Virus record (IMG/VR): IMGVR_UViG_2513237361_000010
Length of the DNA stretch: 8,276 nt
Origin: a virus
Lineage: Duplodnaviria > Heunggongvirae > Uroviricota > Caudoviricetes
Direction: 5' to 3' (one strand)
Both the position numbers and the translations under genes were made by a program. The notes below the pieces were generated by a model, which was given only the letters and a program-made list of their open reading frames with translations, was not told the DNA's origin and ran no database searches. This document shows, in pieces, positions 848 through 8,276 of the stretch; the stretch's first letter is position 1; each line of letters begins with the position of its first letter.

Positions 848-1522
848 TTAGGCTTTGATTTTGTATCTTCTTGGTTTTCCTGAGAAAATCACTGTACCAA
901 TTATAGAGCAATTACCGTTGATCTTAATGTAAGGCTCAGGCCAGTTTGGGTTTAACGCTTTGAGATAACGCTGTGTCCCATCTTCTATCAACCTTTTGAA
1001 GGTGGTTTCACCTGTATCGTGCATCAATGCAATAACGTCGTCACCGTGGCAGGCAGGTACTTCAGGATCGACAAAAATCATGTCTCCCGGGCGGTACTCA
1101 TCAATCATTGAATCACCTATCACCCGCAAGATATAAGTCATTTCCCCGCAGGGTACAGGGCAGGGATATGTTTCTGCTGTGCTCAAATCAACCTCAGAAT
1201 ATCCAACTTCTTTCCATGCTCCGGCCTGTACCCATGATATGACAGGGACTAATGTGATTTGTTTATTAGTGATTGAAACATCAGGTTGTTTTGTGATGTT
1301 CGTTGTCTGGTGTTCTTGATCGAGCCATCCGACAGGCAGGTCGAAACATTTTTCGATGTGTCGTGCCATGCTGTCACCGATATTTTTAGTAGCACCATCT
1401 CCCATAAACCTGCTGGTCTGGGTTGGCTCGCGATCAATCATAGTGGCAAAGGAAGAATTCCCGCCAACACCATCTCTCAGTTTTCTGGCGTTAGACCGCC
1501 GGATGTCATGGATTGTTTTCAT
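848..1522 (-). CDS. CI-like phage repressor, HTH domain plus S24 (LexA/CI-type) autopeptidase domain
   Basis: 224 aa. C-terminal domain carries the S24 signature: Ala-Gly cleavage site (VQAGAW), catalytic Ser in VIGDSM, GDMIFVDP, and catalytic Lys in FKRL. The N-terminal part has HTH-like character. Divergent from the Cro-like gene, with its own terminator. Confidence 0.85.
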   Translation of the reverse strand: MKTIHDIRRSNARKLRDGVGGNSSFATMIDREPTQTSRFMGDGATKNIGDSMARHIEKCFDLPVGWLDQEHQTTNITKQPDVSITNKQITLVPVISWVQAGAWKEVGYSEVDLSTAETYPCPVPCGEMTYILRVIGDSMIDEYRPGDMIFVDPEVPACHGDDVIALMHDTGETTFKRLIEDGTQRYLKALNPNWPEPYIKINGNCSIIGTVIFSGKPRRYKIKA

Positions 1523-1612
1523 AACGAAATTAAAACCCTTGTACCGTTAAGGTACAAGTATCTTGAAGGTTCATTTCAATCATGTAATATGTACACCGGA
1601 GGTACATATTGT
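1523..1612. promoter_or_regulatory. divergent operator/promoter region (PRM-like and PR-like) between repressor and cro-like gene
   Basis: Perfect dyad cttgtacc-N5-ggtacaag (1538-1558) and dyad atatgtac-N7-gtacatat (1587-1609). Candidate rightward promoter: -35 TTGAAG (1563-1568), -10 TAATAT (1585-1590). Candidate leftward promoter: -10 TTTAAT (complement of 1529-1534) only 6 nt from the repressor ATG, implying a leaderless or near-leaderless repressor mRNA as with lambda cI. Confidence 0.55.
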
Positions 1613-1813
1613 ATGAAAGCGTATTGGGACTCTTTAACCAAAGAACAGCAGGGCGAGTTGGCCGGAAAAGTTGGCTCAACACCTGGCTACTTACGGCTGG
1701 TTTTCAATGGTTATAAAAAAGCCAGTTTTGTGCTGGCTAAAAAACTTGAGCAATGCACGTCAGGTGCAATTACGAAATCTGACTTAAGACCGGATATCTA
1801 TCCGAAAGATTAG
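1613..1813 (+). CDS. Cro-like small HTH regulator (Cro/YdaS family)
   Basis: 66 aa. ATG at 1613 preceded by GGAGG (1597-1601). Divergent from the repressor and sharing its operator region. Sequence pattern (ELAGKVGSTPGYL...GAITKSDLRP) resembles small Cro-type prophage regulators. The upstream part of track ORF 1286..1813 is antisense to the repressor and is ignored. Confidence 0.7.
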   Translation: MKAYWDSLTKEQQGELAGKVGSTPGYLRLVFNGYKKASFVLAKKLEQCTSGAITKSDLRPDIYPKD

Positions 1814-1844
1814 CAGAACACTTTCAATTTTTAACCACAGAACG

Positions 1845-2408
1845 ATGAGGCTAATCGTGGGTAAGCATCACTGGAAAATAGAAAAACAGCCTGAGTGGTA
1901 CGTGAAAGCTGTCAGAAAAACTATCGCGGCGTTGCCGGGTGGTTACGCTGAAGCGGCTGACTGGCTCGATGTAACAGAAAACGCTTTATTCAACCGCCTT
2001 CGTGCAGATGGCGATCAGATTTTCCCGCTGGGATGGGCAATGGTTTTACAGCGTGCTGGTGGCACTCACTTCATTGCTGATGCTGTGGCGCAGTCTGCAA
2101 ATGGCGTCTTTGTGTCTCTTCCTGACATCGAGGATGTGGACAACGCCGATATCAACCAACGCCTGCTGGAGGTCATTGAACAGATCGGCAGTTATTCAAA
2201 ACAGATTCGTTCAGCAATTGAAGACGGTGTAGTGGAACCGCATGAGAAGACAGCAATTAATGACGAGCTGTACCTCTCAATTTCGAAGCTGCAGGAGCAT
2301 GCAGCACTGGTCTACAAAATTTTTTGCATTTCAGAAAGTAATGACGCCCGCGAGTGTGCAGCTCCGGGCGCCGTGGCGTGTCGTGACTGTGGAGAAACTA
2401 ACGCATGA
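1845..2408 (+). CDS. YdaT/CII-like early regulatory protein (positional assignment)
   Basis: 187-aa ORF directly after the cro-like gene, the position occupied by cII or ydaT-type genes in lambdoid and rac-like prophages. Its stop overlaps the next start (ATGA at 2405-2408). Family assignment is by synteny and general resemblance only. The start could instead be GTG 1857, which has a GAGG 6 nt upstream. Confidence 0.5.
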
Positions 2409-2743
2409 ACAGTTTAACAACACACTACCGTCGCTCGCAACTGATTGCACTTCCTGTACCGGGTGGAAAAGCGAAGGTGGAGTATTGCTATGCAGTAAAT
2501 GTACCAGGTGACAGGGAAATTGTAACCCACAGCTTTGCAGAGTGGGCTGTGGGTGATTTCAACCGGCAGAAGGAGACAGTCCTTTGCGACAAGTTAACCG
2601 CTGGTTCAAAGATCACTACGGAGTGCCCGTCAGAGTCATTCGTTGGGAGCCGGAAACACAACGTGTTATCTACCTCCGCGAAGGCTATGAGCATGAATGC
2701 TTCAGTCCGCTCGAACAGTTTCGTCGTAAATTCAGGGAAATAG
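2405..2743 (+). CDS. hypothetical protein; C-terminal half doubtful (frame conflict)
   Basis: ATG at 2405 overlaps the stop of the previous gene. The first ~58 residues look protein-like. After ~2580 this frame becomes Ser-rich and low-complexity, while the overlapping frame looks like a real protein. Confidence 0.4.
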
Positions 2744-2763
2744 AGGTCGGTCATGAGCACTAA
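2584..2763 (+). CDS. unannotated small ORF (59 aa, TTG start), or the frameshifted C-terminal part of the preceding gene
   Basis: Not in the ORF track (below its length cutoff). AAGGAG at 2570-2575, then an 8-nt spacer, then TTG 2584-2586. Translation [59 protein letters not shown] is rich in W/F/Y and charged residues. Stop at 2761-2763 overlaps the start of the initiator gene. Confidence 0.35.
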
Positions 2764-3694
2764 ATTAACCGGCTATGTATGGGATGGTTGCGCTGCGTCA
2801 GGCATGAAATTATCCAGCGTGGCAATTATGGCCCGCCTGGCTGATTTCAGTAATGACGAAGGTGTGTGCTGGCCATCAATTGAAACCATTGCCCGCCAGA
2901 TTGGTGCGGGGATGAGTACCGTCAGAACGGCTATCGCACGGCTGGAAGCAGAAGGCTGGTTAACGCGTAAGGCGCGTCGCCAGGGTAACCGCAATGCGTC
3001 GAATGTTTATCAGCTTAACGTTGCGAAGCTTCAGGCTGCGGCTTTTTCTCAACTGTCAGATTCTGACCCGTCAAAATCTGACGCATCAAAATCTGACCCG
3101 TCAAAATTTGATGCGTCGAAATCTGGCAAAAAAGCGGGTTTTCACCCGTCAGAATCTGGCGGGGATCCGTCAGTAAAATCAAAACATGATCCGTCAGATA
3201 AAAAAACTTCTCGTCCGGACGCTTCGCAACCGGACACGCAGACGGCTGAACAGGAGTTTTTAACTCGCCATCCTGATGCGGTTGTATTCAGCCCTAAAAA
3301 GCGCCAGTGGGGAACGCAGGATGATTTGACCTGCGCACAGTGGCTCTGGAAGAAAATAATCGCCCTGTACGAGCAGGCTGCCGAATGTGACGGCGAGGTG
3401 GTTCGTCCCAAAGAACCGAACTGGACAGCCTGGGCAAACGAAATTCGCCTGATGTGTGTACAGGATGGGCGTACTCACAAACAAATCTGCGAGATGTACA
3501 GCCGTGTCAGCCGCGATCCGTTCTGGTGCCGTAACGTGCTCAGCCCGTCGAAGCTGCGGGAAAAATGGGATGAGCTTTCCCTGCGCTTATCGCCGTCCGT
3601 CAGCACGTACACCGAAAAACGCGAGGACCCGTACTTCAAAGCCAGTTACGACAACGTGGACTACAGCCAGATCCCGGTAGGATTCAGAGGGTGA
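2753..3694 (+). CDS. replication initiator, lambda O-like architecture (N-terminal HTH DNA-binding domain, iteron-encoded linker, C-terminal domain)
   Basis: 313 aa. ATG at 2753 with GAGG 6 nt upstream. N-terminal region resembles HTH replication-initiator domains. The central low-complexity linker (SDSDPSKSDASKSDPSKFDASKSGKK...) is encoded by DNA iterons, as in lambda O. Stop overlaps the next gene. Confidence 0.7.
   Translation: MSTKLTGYVWDGCAASGMKLSSVAIMARLADFSNDEGVCWPSIETIARQIGAGMSTVRTAIARLEAEGWLTRKARRQGNRNASNVYQLNVAKLQAAAFSQLSDSDPSKSDASKSDPSKFDASKSGKKAGFHPSESGGDPSVKSKHDPSDKKTSRPDASQPDTQTAEQEFLTRHPDAVVFSPKKRQWGTQDDLTCAQWLWKKIIALYEQAAECDGEVVRPKEPNWTAWANEIRLMCVQDGRTHKQICEMYSRVSRDPFWCRNVLSPSKLREKWDELSLRLSPSVSTYTEKREDPYFKASYDNVDYSQIPVGFRG
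3055..3200. repeat. iteron array, putative origin of replication inside the initiator gene
   Basis: 15-bp periodic direct repeats ttctgacccgtcaaa / atctgacgcatcaaa / atctgacccgtcaaa / atttgatgcgtcgaa (3061-3120), with further CCGTCAG copies at 3146, 3167 and 3191. The unit contains the dyad gtcaga / tctgac. The array is followed by an A-rich stretch (3198-3207). Confidence 0.7.
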
Positions 3695-3696
3695 TC

Positions 3697-4185
3697 ATGA
3701 GTCTGTTAAATGACGTTCAGAAATTCATTGAAGCCCATCCGGGGTGTACTTCCGGAGACATTGCGGATGCTTTTGCAGGTTACTCACGGCAGCGCGTTCT
3801 GCAGTCTGCAAGCAAGTTACGTCAGAGTGGGCGTGTGGCTCACCGTTGTGAAGGGGATACACGCAGACATTTCCCGCGCCTGACTGAGAGAGCGCAGGAG
3901 CCGGAACCACAACCAGTTCGTGAAACCAGACCTGTGCGCAATTTCTATGTCGGCACTAACGATCCCCGGGTGATTTTGTGCCTGACCCGCCAGGCTGAAG
4001 AACTGGAGTCAAGGGGCTTATACCGTCGTGCTGCAACCGTGTGGATGGCGGCATTCCGTGAAAGCCACTCCCAGCCAGAACGAAACAATTTTCTGGCGCG
4101 TCGTGAGCGGTGCTTACGGAAAAGCAGCAAGCGCGCTGCATCGGGTGAAGAGTGGTATCTGTCAGGGAATTACGTGGGGGCGTAA
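3697..4185 (+). CDS. PerC-family-like transcriptional regulator with N-terminal winged-helix-like extension
   Basis: C-terminal region AEELESRGLYRRAATVWMAAF...ERNNFLARRERCLRKS matches the PerC/Pch signature (LE..GLWRRAA..W ... RR..C). The track ORF starts at GTG 3691; ATG 3697 is preferred. Stop TAA 4183-4185 overlaps the next ATG (TAATG). Confidence 0.65.
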   Translation: MSLLNDVQKFIEAHPGCTSGDIADAFAGYSRQRVLQSASKLRQSGRVAHRCEGDTRRHFPRLTERAQEPEPQPVRETRPVRNFYVGTNDPRVILCLTRQAEELESRGLYRRAATVWMAAFRESHSQPERNNFLARRERCLRKSSKRAASGEEWYLSGNYVGA

Positions 4186-4511
4186 TGACGACGTTAACTC
4201 AATGCCAGCAGCAGGTGCTGGATATGCTGATTTCTTATCAGAAAGAGCGTGGCTTTCCGCCAACCAATCAGGAGGTGGCAACCATGCTGGGATACCGTTC
4301 GGTGAATGCAGCGGTGGAGCATCTTCGCGCACTGGAGAAAAAAGGTGTCATCACGATAAAGCGTGGCGTGGCCCGGGGTATCACTCTTCATACCGCGGTG
4401 GAGGACGACGACAGCGAGGCGGTCGGGATTATCCGCGCACTGCTTGCCGGTGAGGCAAACGCCAGGCTGCGTGCAGCCCACTGGTTACATGAGAGGGGCC
4501 TGAAAGTATGA
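4185..4511 (+). CDS. LexA-like protein: LexA N-terminal DNA-binding domain and hinge only, no S24 peptidase domain
   Basis: 108 aa. MTTLTQCQQQVLDMLISYQKERGFPPTNQEVATMLGYRSVNAAVEHLRALEKKGVITIKRGVARGITL aligns by eye with E. coli LexA residues 1-70, including recognition helix NAAxEHL. It is followed by an acidic hinge (VEDDDSE) and a VG..AGE remnant of the cleavage region, and ends about 25 residues later. GGGGG sits upstream of ATG 4185; the stop overlaps the rusA start (ATGA). Confidence 0.8.
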   Translation: MTTLTQCQQQVLDMLISYQKERGFPPTNQEVATMLGYRSVNAAVEHLRALEKKGVITIKRGVARGITLHTAVEDDDSEAVGIIRALLAGEANARLRAAHWLHERGLKV

Positions 4512-4897
4512 AGCTAATACTGCCTTTTCCGCCCAGCGTGAACACGTACTGGCGACACCCCAACAAAGGGGCGTTTGCAGGTAAGAGCCTGATAAGCGCG
4601 GCGGGGCGCAAATTCCAGAGCGCGGCGTGTGCAGCAATAGTTGAGCAGTTACGTCGTCTGCCAAAACCAACGTCGGCACCTGCTTCAGTGGAGATCGTGT
4701 TGTTTCCTCCGGATAACCGGATCCGCGATCTGGACAACTATAACAAGGCGCTGTTTGACGCCCTGACCCACGCGGGTGTGTGGGAAGACGACAGTCAGGT
4801 GAAAAGAATGCTGGTGGAGTGGGGACCGGTTATCCCGGAAGGGAAGGTCGAGATCACTATCAGTAAGTACGAGAAAACGGCGGGTGCAGCCGCCTGA
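4508..4897 (+). CDS. rusA: RusA Holliday junction resolvase
   Basis: 129 aa. Motifs LPFPPSVNTYWR and DLDNYNKALFDALTHAGVWEDDSQV match the RusA family, including the acidic catalytic region. A typical lambdoid NinR-region gene. Confidence 0.9.
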   Translation: MKLILPFPPSVNTYWRHPNKGAFAGKSLISAAGRKFQSAACAAIVEQLRRLPKPTSAPASVEIVLFPPDNRIRDLDNYNKALFDALTHAGVWEDDSQVKRMLVEWGPVIPEGKVEITISKYEKTAGAAA

Positions 4898-4916
4898 TCA
4901 AGAGGAGAAACGAAGT

Positions 4917-5159
4917 ATGAATAATCTGATGGTCATTGATGGTATTGAAGTTCGTCGTGATGCTTATGGGCGTTACAGCCTGAACGATCTGCATCGCGCA
5001 GCAGTAGCATCTGGTGCAAATGCCAGAACCAAGGAGCCAGGAAAGTTTCTTTCCAGCCAACAAACTGTTGAACTTGTTCATGAATTGACCAACACCCAGA
5101 ATTTGGGTGTTGACCCGGTGAGTGTGATTCATGGGGGAAATGAACGGGGAACGCCGTAA
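4917..5159 (+). CDS. KilA-N domain protein, apparently truncated
   Basis: ATG at 4917 with GAGGAG 9 nt upstream (the track ORF starts at GTG 4884). The pattern IDGIEVRRDAYGRYSLNDLHRAA...PGKFL...GGNERGT resembles the N-terminal half of KilA-N / antirepressor N-domains. The ORF stops right after the GG..GT motif and no frame continues the domain. Confidence 0.55.
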   Translation: MNNLMVIDGIEVRRDAYGRYSLNDLHRAAVASGANARTKEPGKFLSSQQTVELVHELTNTQNLGVDPVSVIHGGNERGTP

Positions 5160-5472
5160 ATTCAGTATCCTTGTGCGTATCCTCGCTGACGGGCGCACCA
5201 CAGACATCCCGCTGGGGCGTTTTCTGCGGGAATTTACCTGTGACCGTCCTGACCTGTTTAAACGCAGCCCCGTAAACCGGCATGCGGTACTGAAAGAAAT
5301 GGCCGGAGACCCGGAATTACAGAAATGGCGGGAGAAATATCTGGATATTTACCCGCAGGACCCTGTTCCGGTCAGCCGGGCGGCACCGGTGGCGCGGGAA
5401 TGGCGGGAAATTCCCCGCACGGAGCCTGACCCGGAAATCACCCCGGATAACAGTTACCGCAATTATCTGTAA
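5131..5472 (+). CDS. hypothetical protein
   Basis: 113-aa ORF overlapping the 3' end of the KilA-N ORF by 29 nt in another frame. Alternative ATG at 5140. Higher GC than upstream genes. No recognisable motif. Confidence 0.45.
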   Translation: MGEMNGERRKFSILVRILADGRTTDIPLGRFLREFTCDRPDLFKRSPVNRHAVLKEMAGDPELQKWREKYLDIYPQDPVPVSRAAPVAREWREIPRTEPDPEITPDNSYRNYL

Positions 5473-5500
5473 TTAAAAAACGACACCCGAAAAATTAAAT

Positions 5501-5526
5501 GTGCGTATTCGCGCAGGGATACGCAC
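5501..5526. promoter_or_regulatory. perfect 8-bp inverted repeat (gtgcgtat-N10-atacgcac), candidate operator or RNA stem-loop
   Basis: Lies in the only sizeable intergenic gap of the rightward operon (5473-5607). No U tract follows, so it is unlikely to be an intrinsic terminator. Confidence 0.4.
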
Positions 5527-5545
5527 GTCTTCAGGAGACGCAGAT

Positions 5546-5611
5546 ATGCCTTATCAGTTAATGCAACCGGCACGGAATGCAGTCATCTGTCACAGGGAGG
5601 AAAGCAAATGA
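5546..5611 (+). CDS. possible 21-codon upstream ORF / leader peptide ([21 protein letters not shown])
   Basis: AGGAG (5533-5537) 8 nt upstream of ATG 5546. Its stop TGA 5609-5611 overlaps the ATG of the next gene (ATGA). Could be a chance ORF. Confidence 0.25.
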
Positions 5612-5928
5612 AAACCCCCTTACCGCCCGTCTTACGCGCAGCCCTTTACCGTCGCGCTGTCGCCTGTGCCTGGCTGACCGTGTGCGAACGTCAGCACCGC
5701 TACCCGCATCTCACCCTTGAATCACTGGAGGCGGCCATCGCCGCTGAGCTGGAAGGCTTTTATCTGCGCCAGCACGGTGAGGAAAAAGGGCGTCAGATAG
5801 CCTGTGCCCTGCTGGAAGATTTAATGGAATCCGGCCCCCTGAAGGCCGCGCCGTCGCTGTCCTTTCTCGGGCTGGTTGTGATGGATGAACTCTGTGCCCG
5901 TCACATAAAAGCGCCGGTACTGCACTGA
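5608..5928 (+). CDS. hypothetical protein immediately upstream of the primase
   Basis: 106 aa. GGGAGG 7 nt upstream of ATG 5608. Stop TGA 5926-5928 overlaps the primase RBS (AGGAGA). No recognisable motif. Confidence 0.6.
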
Positions 5929-5942
5929 AGGAGAACAACACC

Positions 5943-8276
5943 ATGAAAATGAACGTAACCGCCACCGTCAGCCATGCACTCGGCCACTGGCCGCGTATTC
6001 TCCCGGCGCTGGGGATTCAGGTGCTGAAAAACCGTCATCAGCCCTGTCCGGTCTGTGGCGGGAGTGACCGCTTCCGTTTTGATGACAGGGAGGGGCGCGG
6101 CACCTGGTACTGCAATCAGTGTGGTGCCGGTGACGGCCTGAAACTGGTTGAAAAGGTGTTTGGTGTTTCCCCGTCCGACGCGGCCACAAAGGTGGCTGCC
6201 GTGACCGGCAGTCTGCCCCCGGCTGACCCGGCAGTGACGGCCGCCGCCGTTGCTGAAACAGAAGCCGCCCGGAAGAACGCCGCCGCACTGGCACAAACCC
6301 TGATGGCGAAAACCCGTCCCGGAACCGGTAACGCCTACCTGACCCGCAAGGGCTTTCCCGGCCGGGAATGCCGGATGCTGACCGGCACACACAGAGCCGG
6401 TGGCGTGAGCTGGCGCGCCGGTGACCTTGTGGTGCCACTGTATGACGACAGCGGCGAACTGGTTAACCTTCAGTTAATCAGTGCTGACGGCCGTAAGCGC
6501 ACCCTGAAAGGCGGACAGGTCAGGGGCACCTGTCACATCCTTGAAGGACAGAATCAGGCCGGAAAACGTCTGTGGATAGCGGAGGGATACGCGACCGCAC
6601 TTACCGTACATCACCTGACCGGTGAAACGGTGATGGTGGCGCTTTCTTCCGTGAACCTCCTTTCTCTGGCCAGCCTTGCCCGGCAGAAGCATCCGGCCTG
6701 TCAGATTGTCCTTGCCGCAGACCGTGACCTCAGCGGTGACGGCCAGAAAAAAGCCGCCGCAGCCGCAGATGCGTGTGAAGGTGTTGTTGCCCTGCCGCCG
6801 GTCTTCGGTGACTGGAATGATGCCTTCACGCAGTACGGCGGGGAAGCCACCCGTAAGGCCATTTATGATGCCATCCGGCCACCGGCTGAAAGCCCGTTCG
6901 ACACCATGAGCGAAGCGGAGTTTTCCGCCATGAGTACCAGCGAAAAGGCCATGCGTATCTATGAGCATTACGGCGAGGCGCTCGCGGTCGATGCCAACGG
7001 CCAGCTTCTGTCCCGCTATGAAAATGGTGTCTGGAAGGTGCTGCCGCCACAGGACTTTGCCCGGGATGTGGCCGGGCTGTTTCAGCGGCTGCGCGCGCCG
7101 TTCTCCTCCGGGAAGGTGGCCTCCGTGGTGGACACCCTGAAGCTGATTATTCCGCAGCAGGAAGCCCCCTCCCGCTGCCTGATTGGCTTTCGTAACGGCG
7201 TGCTCGACACGCAGAACGGCACGTTCCACCCGCACAGTCCGTCACACTGGATGCGTACCCTGTGCGATGTGGATTTCACCCCGCCGGTGGAAGGGGAAAC
7301 GCTGGAAACCCACGCCCCCGCGTTCTGGCGCTGGCTTGACCGTGCCGCCGGTGGCCGTGCGGAAAAACGCGACGTGATTCTGGCCGCACTGTTTATGGTG
7401 CTGGCAAACCGCTATGACTGGCAGCTCTTTCTGGAGGTGACCGGTCCCGGCGGCAGCGGCAAAAGTATCATGGCCGAAATAGCCACCCTGCTGGCCGGGG
7501 AGGATAACGCCACGTCGGCCACCATCGAGACGCTGGAATCCCCGCGTGAACGTGCCGCGTTAACTGGCTTCTCACTGATACGCCTGCCGGACCAGGAAAA
7601 ATGGAGCGGCGACGGAGCCGGACTCAAGGCCATCACCGGCGGCGATGCGGTGTCCGTTGACCCGAAATACCGGGATGCGTACTCCACGCACATCCCGGCG
7701 GTGATTCTGGCCGTGAACAATAACCCGATGCGCTTCACCGACCGCAGCGGCGGCGTGTCACGCCGGCGGGTGATTATTCACTTCCCGGAACAGATAGCCC
7801 CGCAGGAGCGCGACCCGCAGCTTAAGGACAAAATCACCCGCGAGCTGGCGGTCATCGTGCGTCACCTGATGCAGAAGTTCAGCGACCCGATGCTCGCCCG
7901 GTCACTGCTTCAGTCCCAGCAGAACTCAGACGAGGCGCTGAACATCAAACGGGATGCCGACCCGACGTTTGATTTTATCGGCTATCTGGAAACCCTGCCG
8001 CAGACCAGCGGCATGTATATGGGGAACGCCAGTATCATCCCGCGTAATTACCGTAAATACCTCTATCACGCCTATCTGGCCTACATGGAGGCAAACGGCT
8101 ACCGGAATGTACTCAGTCTGAAAATGTTCGGGCTGGGGCTGCCGGTGATGCTGAAGGAATACGGGCTGAATTACGAGAAGCGCCATACCAAACAGGGGAT
8201 ACAGACCAACCTGACGCTGAAAGAGGAAAGCTACGGCGACTGGCTGCCAAAATGTGACGACCCTACAACAGCCTGA
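5943..8276 (+). CDS. P4 alpha-type primase-helicase (zinc-ribbon, TOPRIM primase domain, P-loop NTPase/helicase domain)
   Basis: 777 aa. N-terminal zinc ribbon CPVCGG...YCNQCG. TOPRIM-like region with the acidic motifs LWIAEGYATAL and VLAADRDLSGDGQ. Walker A GPGGSGKS, with a downstream VILAVNNNP motif typical of SF3-type helicase domains. Strong RBS AGGAGA 9 nt upstream. Ends exactly at the window end. Confidence 0.9.
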   Translation: MKMNVTATVSHALGHWPRILPALGIQVLKNRHQPCPVCGGSDRFRFDDREGRGTWYCNQCGAGDGLKLVEKVFGVSPSDAATKVAAVTGSLPPADPAVTAAAVAETEAARKNAAALAQTLMAKTRPGTGNAYLTRKGFPGRECRMLTGTHRAGGVSWRAGDLVVPLYDDSGELVNLQLISADGRKRTLKGGQVRGTCHILEGQNQAGKRLWIAEGYATALTVHHLTGETVMVALSSVNLLSLASLARQKHPACQIVLAADRDLSGDGQKKAAAAADACEGVVALPPVFGDWNDAFTQYGGEATRKAIYDAIRPPAESPFDTMSEAEFSAMSTSEKAMRIYEHYGEALAVDANGQLLSRYENGVWKVLPPQDFARDVAGLFQRLRAPFSSGKVASVVDTLKLIIPQQEAPSRCLIGFRNGVLDTQNGTFHPHSPSHWMRTLCDVDFTPPVEGETLETHAPAFWRWLDRAAGGRAEKRDVILAALFMVLANRYDWQLFLEVTGPGGSGKSIMAEIATLLAGEDNATSATIETLESPRERAALTGFSLIRLPDQEKWSGDGAGLKAITGGDAVSVDPKYRDAYSTHIPAVILAVNNNPMRFTDRSGGVSRRRVIIHFPEQIAPQERDPQLKDKITRELAVIVRHLMQKFSDPMLARSLLQSQQNSDEALNIKRDADPTFDFIGYLETLPQTSGMYMGNASIIPRNYRKYLYHAYLAYMEANGYRNVLSLKMFGLGLPVMLKEYGLNYEKRHTKQGIQTNLTLKEESYGDWLPKCDDPTTA

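Follow-up and report, generated by a model that had tools for sequence, protein, structure and literature searches.

The closest characterized analog of the protein described here is gp6 of the Bacillus tectivirus GIL01, a 66-amino-acid (66-aa) truncated LexA homolog that activates the late promoter P3 and binds a non-LexA palindrome, GaCACAnnTGTGaC, at -43.5 of the late promoter (PMC6182141). gp6 acts after SOS induction, and another GIL01 protein, gp7, modulates LexA. In the literature, we found experimental work on gp6 but none on the enterobacterial family to which our protein belongs. Here, we analyzed a stand-alone LexA-type DNA-binding protein of 108 aa encoded in an 8,276-nucleotide stretch of tailed-virus DNA (IMG/VR record IMGVR_UViG_2513237361_000010; Caudoviricetes), referred to below as the window (Table 1). 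Like gp6, this protein is the product of an early gene of a temperate phage and carries a LexA-type DNA-binding domain without a protease. Unlike the 108-aa protein, gp6 has no tail, and it resembles the LexA of Bacillus, whereas the 108-aa protein resembles that of enterobacteria; moreover, the operator and activator role of gp6 are known from experiment, whereas the 108-aa protein is known from sequence and structural models. Membership in the gp6 family was considered and rejected (no BLASTP alignment at E <= 100), and, judged by sequence, the capture of a LexA domain by the 108-aa family was independent of that by gp6. The gene itself is not a new discovery, being annotated in thousands of genomes, and the exact protein is present in NCBI as [quoted passage not shown]

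The 108-aa protein consists of a LexA winged helix followed by an acidic flexible hinge, and it lacks the S24 protease. The Pfam LexA_DNA_bind model matched over its entire length (1 to 65 of 65; E = 2.9e-19), and the same Pfam search gave no match to Peptidase_S24. Only positions 1 to 91 of 203 of the LexA model TIGR00498 were aligned, with a score of 71.7 bits against a cut-off of 110.95. By BLASTP, the protein was 43% identical to Escherichia coli LexA over 91 aa (E = 1e-21), with RSVNAAVEHL paired to RSPNAAEEHL of LexA, and a sequence search of the PDB returned the N-terminal domain of LexA (1lea; E = 3e-16) and full-length LexA as the best solved structures. When the family was aligned with hhalign to 104 beta- and gamma-proteobacterial LexA proteins, the match covered residues 1 to 71 only (probability 99.9%; E = 4e-33). 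The AlphaFold monomer model (mean predicted local distance difference test [pLDDT] score of 79.7) placed three helices (6 to 22, 28 to 35, and 40 to 52) and a two-stranded wing (56 to 58 and 66 to 68) within residues 1 to 68, which Foldseek superimposed on the LexA-DNA complex 3jso with a root mean square deviation of 0.8 A and 51% identity (67 aligned residues). By homology, then, the protein descends from an enterobacterial-type LexA N-terminal domain. A first-pass annotation, made from the letters of the window alone, had proposed a LexA DNA-binding domain including the recognition helix, an acidic hinge, and the absence of an S24 catalytic domain; the profile searches it called for bear out this architecture and the significance of the LexA similarity. 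In the model, the hinge (AVEDD) has pLDDT scores below 50. Its further claim that the protein is immune to RecA-stimulated self-cleavage also stands, since the catalytic domain needed for that reaction is missing.

The first-pass annotation had the protein end after the hinge. Although no S24 domain follows, the C terminus is occupied by a two-helix tail, whose helices (residues 75 to 87 and 93 to 103) were predicted with pLDDT scores of 83 to 85. The tail consensus, EAxxxIRALLAxExxARxRAxxxLxxxG, is kept in relatives at 40 to 49% identity, whereas the length of the hinge differs among family members. At the profile level, the tail could not be aligned to LexA (hhalign stopped at residue 71), and no homolog of it was detected. 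A vestige of the Ala-Gly cleavage site (VG..AGE) had also been proposed. Pairwise BLASTP gives this impression, since in the E. coli clade residues E78 to E90 align without gaps to E74 to E86 of LexA, with A88-G89-E90 opposite A84-G85-E86. However, the resemblance disappears in the profile-profile alignment, and the dipeptide is not conserved within the family, other members carrying AN, VG, ER, TR, SG, DD, and so on at that position; in addition, the segment around A88-G89 is predicted to be helical rather than an extended cleavage loop. The vestige is therefore not regarded as established, and the tail most plausibly represents a module peculiar to the family. It may serve in dimerization or in binding a partner: dimerization is suggested because the two helices are amphipathic and stand where the dimerization domain of LexA, its C-terminal domain (PMC3091678), would be.

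Compared with E. coli LexA (1lea, 1jhh, and 3jso), the 108-aa protein thus shares a homologous N-terminal winged helix, the recognition-helix core S-x-N-A-A-x-E-H-L, the wing R-G-I, and an acidic flexible hinge. It differs in lacking the S24 domain, the Ser119/Lys156 catalytic pair, and a conserved Ala-Gly site, in having the two-helix tail in place of the C-terminal dimerization domain, in scoring below the TIGR00498 cut-off, in the replacement of R28 and E44, and in being encoded within a phage operon by a gene that has no autoregulatory box. Four of six features of LexA proper (the protease domain, a score above the cut-off, the invariant R28/E44, and autoregulation) are lacking, and the protein should not bear the name LexA. 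The lambdoid CI/S24 repressors, one of which is encoded in the same element, are likewise phage regulators linked in evolution to the LexA superfamily; however, they share the S24 half of LexA and have an unrelated helix-turn-helix N terminus, whereas the 108-aa protein shares the opposite half.

The protein matched PHROG 362 over its full length (1 to 106 of 106; E = 4e-59) and has the length (about 104 to 113 aa) and conserved two-helix tail of that family. The members SfV orf42, mEp460 gp46, cdtI orf48, and SfII_44 are 94 to 99% identical to it and equally long, lie in the same place between dam or the PerC-like gene and rusA, and show no difference of substance. The names given to PHROG 362 members ("transcriptional repressor," "SOS-response repressor and protease LexA," and "RecA-mediated autopeptidases") are annotation transfers, and the protease-related ones are incorrect, since these proteins have no S24 domain. 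By megablast, the gene was present in 2,233 of 5,426 complete E. coli genomes (41%), mostly at 95 to 99% nucleotide identity and in up to four places in one genome. It was also found in the isolated phages SfV, SfII, SfIV, cdtI, and mEp460 and in Stx2a, Stx2c, and Stx2k phages; among these carriers, SfV, SfII, mEp460, cdtI, and the Stx2 phages are functional (plaque forming or inducible). An exhaustive profile search added relatives of equal length and with the same C-terminal pattern at 40 to 49% identity, some of them located in Atlantibacter, Enterobacter, and Kosakonia genomes, and homologs at 37 to 49% identity occupy the same replication-to-Q region in phage mEp390, Edwardsiella phage EPP-1, and a Klebsiella phage. 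A degenerate DNA pattern search of genome contigs returned mostly true lexA genes and only six short homologs, a number too small for statistics. Stand-alone LexA winged-helix proteins of 65 to 150 aa are common among predicted viral structures.

Polymorphism data show that this family is under purifying selection and is not a broken lexA. Across 79 distinct alleles, we counted 56 synonymous and 28 nonsynonymous variants (ratio of nonsynonymous to synonymous polymorphism [pN/pS], ~0.16), and only one allele had an internal stop. The recognition helix (helix 3) carried no nonsynonymous variant at all, while 22 of the 28 fell in residues 70 to 108. Together with the full-length PHROG match and the presence of rusA directly downstream, this selection rules out a fragment of a disrupted full-length lexA, the outcome that the first-pass annotation had named as refuting its proposal. 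A role as a component of a defense system was also considered and set aside, since PADLOC returned just a marginal match of the winged-helix type.

Frameshifted and fused versions of the gene occur in databases. Proteins of 168 to 217 aa named "phage N-6-adenine-methyltransferase" (P0024, P0092, P0098, P0121, and P0254 to P0258; up to 56 contigs) join the N-terminal part of Dam (PF05869) to LexA-like sequence, one 217-aa example holding the entire LexA-like sequence at residues 110 to 217; these could have arisen by in-frame deletions that joined dam to the LexA-like gene it overlaps. Many proteins of 140 to 350 aa (P0127, P0129, P0130, P0136, P0137, P0140, and others) gave two separate LexA-like profile matches and may contain LexA winged-helix domains arranged in tandem.

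The gene is embedded in an early operon. The TAA of the PerC-like gene overlaps its ATG (TAATG), and its own TGA overlaps the ATG of rusA at 4508 (ATGA), in agreement with the translational coupling proposed in the first pass. In intact relatives, a CI-type repressor gene is followed on the opposite strand by cro, a cII-like gene, a small open reading frame (ORF), the replication initiator gene, the PerC-like gene, an optional dam, the LexA-like gene, rusA, the KilA-N regulator gene, DUF968, Q, and the lysis genes. This order was the same beside Mu-like and lambda-like virion modules, and the LexA-like gene always lay between the replication genes and Q (SfII, SfV, mEp460, cdtI, Stx2a_WGPS2, mEp390, and eight genomic places). 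A strict scan of positions 1400 to 5700 of the window found no sigma-70-like promoter; the simplest reading is therefore that the gene belongs to the delayed-early genes transcribed with the rightward operon.

To look for operators, we scored sites with a position matrix derived from about 26 E. coli SOS boxes; when 98 true lexA genes were scanned as a check, 87 had a box in the 300 bp preceding the gene. Real boxes score 13 to 27 bits, and a strong box was defined as one of at least 17 bits. The census covered 80 IMG/VR prophage loci anchored on the LexA-like gene (1.25 Mb) and, as controls, two sets of lambdoid loci lacking the gene, 80 anchored on lambda NinG and 80 on K-12-type RusA. At least one strong box lay within 10 kb in 49 of the 80 gene-anchored loci (61 boxes in total), compared to 1 of 80 NinG loci and 1 of 80 RusA loci (Fisher P = 2e-18, although the loci are not independent). 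Canonical SOS boxes were thus about 50-fold more frequent per locus near the gene than in the controls. Beyond the E. coli clade, the LexA-like gene of EPP-1 is the last of a two-gene unit with a 24-bit box lying 80 bp upstream, and strong boxes lie near the diverged homologs of the Klebsiella phage and a Kosakonia prophage.

Three sites recurred in the gene-anchored loci, with the boxes TACTGTTTTTATATACAGTA, TACTGTATTTATGAACAGTG, and TACTGTAAAAATAAACAGTG, respectively. In 24 of the 80 loci, a near-consensus box of 25 to 27 bits (TACTGTTTTTATATACAGTA) lies within the coding sequence of CI/S24 repressors of one type, where it falls in the linker (...SNTVYKNSNN...) that separates the helix-turn-helix from the cleavage domain. 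To our knowledge, no LexA operator inside the gene of a phage repressor has been described; the box could act as a roadblock to cI transcription or mark an internal promoter. In 13 loci, TACTGTATTTATGAACAGTG lies in a 200-bp gap after rusA and before a KilA-N antirepressor-like gene, an arrangement that resembles LexA-controlled antirepressors. The LexA-like allele of these loci is also that of the window, whose KilA-N variant differs in having neither the gap nor the box. The third site, a strong box in codons 3 to 9 of a DNA methyltransferase gene downstream of Q, was present in about 22 loci. Among 67 loci anchored on this methyltransferase gene that had enough upstream sequence, the box was found in all 67 and the LexA-like gene in 65. 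The Stx2a, Stx2c, and Stx2k phages that have the LexA-like gene carry such a strong box at the beginning of the methyltransferase gene, just ahead of stx2. In the Stx2a phage, the tRNAs and stx2AB directly follow the methyltransferase gene, and a LexA-type operator in the late region upstream of stx2 may bear on toxin expression.

A census of palindromes with 5-nucleotide arms and spacers of 0 to 14 pointed to the same element. ACTGT-N8-ACAGT occurred at 14 distinct sites in the gene-anchored loci and at none in the NinG controls, so that spacer 8 dominated (14 versus 0), followed by spacer 14 (7 versus 1). A dedicated non-SOS palindrome was sought in the same comparison, and no conserved alternative tracked the gene: the other enriched palindromes were a terminator-like stem-loop, palindromes in the immunity region (ATGTA-N9-TACAT) that resemble repressor operators, a probably coding palindrome at +2.4 kb, and a CTGT-N14-ACAG element (GTACCTGTAAACTTGGTGCAGTACAGTAAA) with LexA-type half-sites at a non-LexA spacing. 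The last was seen in mEp460 (L003:40541) and cdtI (L007:21604), where it immediately follows a terminator-like hairpin in the interval from Q to the methyltransferase gene; none of the other reference loci, SfV, SfII, and Stx2a_WGPS2 among them, had it.

How the 108-aa protein reads DNA can be judged in part from its residues. The DNA-contact residues of LexA include S39, N41, A42, E44, and E45 (second-hand, PMC3091678), with N41 making a water-mediated contact (second-hand, PMC5999292). The family retains S39, N41, A42, A43, E45, and H46 as well as the wing residues R64-G65-I66. From these sequences, a CTGT-type half-site is plausible, and altered specificity or affinity is equally plausible.

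The reading we favor, though with somewhat less than an even chance of being right, is that the protein is a RecA-insensitive regulator of the LexA type that acts at SOS-box-like operators, is dimerized by its tail, and holds those operators repressed. Given its delayed-early position, the protein would be produced from the rightward operon once the phage has been induced or has infected, at a time when cleavage has removed host LexA. The tail would dimerize it in place of the missing C-terminal domain of LexA, and the dimer would bind operators of the CTGT type, either SOS boxes themselves or sequences close to them, in phage DNA and possibly also in the host chromosome. Promoters bound in this way would be put or kept under repression, rather than activated, whatever the activity of RecA; the candidate targets on the phage are the boxes in the cI linker, at the KilA-N antirepressor-like gene, and in the methyltransferase gene. 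A more far-reaching version seems rather unlikely to us: once the prophage has been induced and host LexA destroyed, the phage-made dimer would stand in for LexA, out of reach of RecA, and would re-occupy SOS boxes, shut off the host SOS regulon and the LexA-controlled antirepressors of rival prophages, and gate the phage's own cI, KilA-N, and methyltransferase genes. Several observations weigh against action at SOS boxes, and they leave the first-pass prediction of SOS-box recognition uncertain despite the retained contact residues and wing and the enrichment of boxes in carrier prophages. R28 and E44, present in 104 and 103 of 104 LexA proteins, respectively, were found in none of 15 family members, which have N, Y, C, Q, or M at position 28 and A, V, F, T, or L at position 44; these replacements suggest a changed specificity or affinity. 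The window contains no exact CTGT-N8-ACAG, as the first pass had noted, and hence no SOS box upstream of the gene through which it could be autoregulated; five matches with one mismatch were found against 2.6 expected, which is chance level, and the best matrix score was 11.1. Of 46 prophage loci with full coverage, 21 had no box within 10 kb, nor did 4 of 5 diverged genomic homologs have one within their 8-kb loci; phage-borne boxes therefore cannot be the sole target. The co-occurrence of gene and boxes may also reflect linkage within a shared module of 5 to 10 kb, the loci being related, and every one of the boxes is also a good site for host LexA alone. Finally, expression of the gene in the defective element of the window is doubtful.

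Much of this evidence would fit a regulator of the gp6 type instead, one with an operator of its own, distinct from the SOS box, that switches phage promoters in the lytic program and does not act directly on the SOS regulon. GIL01 gp6 sets the precedent, as a truncated LexA homolog that binds its own palindrome and activates a late promoter; the replacement of R28 and E44 throughout the family and the box-free window and loci point the same way, and the gene is always found among early regulators (PerC-like, KilA-N, and Q). However, the palindrome census turned up no such operator, the recognition helix is mostly identical to that of LexA and under the strongest constraint, and SOS boxes are enriched around the gene. 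We consider the gp6-type alternative a real possibility but give it distinctly less than an even chance. It is improbable, in our judgment, that the protein modulates SOS through protein contacts, with the tail or hinge engaging LexA, RecA filaments, or phage CI as a decoy, pseudo-substrate, or corepressor. Small phage modulators of LexA do exist (GIL01 gp7), the tail is conserved and without a detectable homolog, and the gapless match of the E. coli clade to LexA includes Ala-Gly-Glu; against this, the Ala-Gly pair is not conserved in the family and lies in a predicted helix, and the strongest purifying selection falls on the recognition helix rather than on the tail. The Foldseek listing includes a structure of full-length LexA with a RecA filament (8trg), in which RecA reportedly engages the C-terminal domain of LexA, and that domain is absent from the 108-aa protein. 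The same absence makes a dominant-negative partner of host LexA, one of the roles raised in the first pass, unlikely, since LexA dimerizes through its C-terminal domain (PMC3091678). Very improbable, lastly, is a functionless leftover, either a phage-captured lexA fragment or a silent passenger of the dead prophage in the window. The element is indeed defective, its KilA-N gene being cut at about position 5153 and joined to a P4-like remnant, and there are the frameshifted and fused variants mentioned above. Yet the low pN/pS, the near absence of internal stops among the 79 alleles, the conservation of length in relatives at 40 to 49% identity from other genera, and the presence of the gene in functional phages exclude a relic for the family, while it is possible that the defective copy in the window is one.

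Table 1. Positions of the features discussed; coordinates are those of the window unless a reference locus (L) is named
Feature	Position	Strand	Basis or remark
Stand-alone LexA-type DNA-binding protein gene	4185..4511	+	108 aa; PHROG 362; NCBI "LexA family transcriptional regulator"
Residues 1-71, winged helix-turn-helix, LexA N-terminal homolog	4185..4397	+	hhalign, AlphaFold, Foldseek, polymorphism data
Residues 71-75, acidic flexible hinge of variable length (AVEDD of AVEDDDSE)	4395..4409	+	pLDDT <50
Residues 75-103, two-helix tail (helices 75-87 and 93-103)	4407..4493	+	AlphaFold; family pattern
PerC-family regulator gene	3691..4185	+	Pfam PerC 7.8e-09; PHROG 1324
rusA, Holliday junction resolvase	4508..4897	+	Pfam RusA 6.1e-15; PHROG 34
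CI-type repressor with S24 self-cleavage domain (ymfK-like)	848..1522	-	Pfam Peptidase_S24 1.4e-26; RefSeq ymfK on matching genes
Cro-like first gene of rightward early operon	1613..1813	+	66-aa gene at equivalent place in L370 and L377 (YdaS_toxin or P22_Cro)
KilA-N regulator gene, truncated to 80 aa	4917..5159	+	Pfam KilA-N; 269 aa in L370-L376, 80 aa in L377
cI-internal box	L001:16446-16465 (SfII); L003:31970-31989 (mEp460); L008:6408 (Stx2a_WGPS2)		Matrix scan
KilA-N box	L010:10656; L012:4973; L013:10765		+764 from gene start
Methyltransferase box	L002:34170 (SfV); L003:41021 (mEp460); L007:22084 (cdtI); L008:17247 (Stx2a_WGPS2)		

The window as a whole is a composite, defective prophage remnant. 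Its lambdoid segment, which includes the separate cleavable CI-like repressor noted in the first pass, contains no integrase, structural, or lysis genes and ends inside the KilA-N gene, at the point where the megablast matches also stop. The junction at about 5153 was present in GCA_000208565.2, to whose record AEME01000001.1 (locus L377) the window corresponds, and no match spanned it in any of the 5,426 complete E. coli genomes. Since this copy of the gene lies in a defective remnant, our conclusions on function rest on the family. Positions 5131 to 8276 cover the P4-like part, made up of a PHROG 10748 ORF that lacks the initial 42 positions of the profile, DUF5375, and a primase-helicase of 777 aa; a host Peptidase_S11 gene follows. 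Within the O-like replication initiator gene (2753..3694), a 15-bp unit, TCTGACCCGTCAAAA, is repeated in tandem four and a third times at positions 3062 to 3125; the repeats encode a repetitive DPSKSDASKS stretch and probably include origin iterons.

If the protein binds SOS boxes, it would represent a widespread viral override of the bacterial DNA-damage response, which drives mutagenesis, antibiotic tolerance, prophage induction, and the release of Shiga toxin. Should it act as a stand-in for LexA that RecA cannot inactivate, about 40% of E. coli genomes would hold a viral off-switch for SOS, one that could also influence the biology of Shiga toxin phages. Even as a private regulator like gp6, the family would mean that the DNA-binding half of LexA was captured on separate occasions, by tectiviruses of Gram-positive bacteria and by lambdoid phages of enterobacteria.

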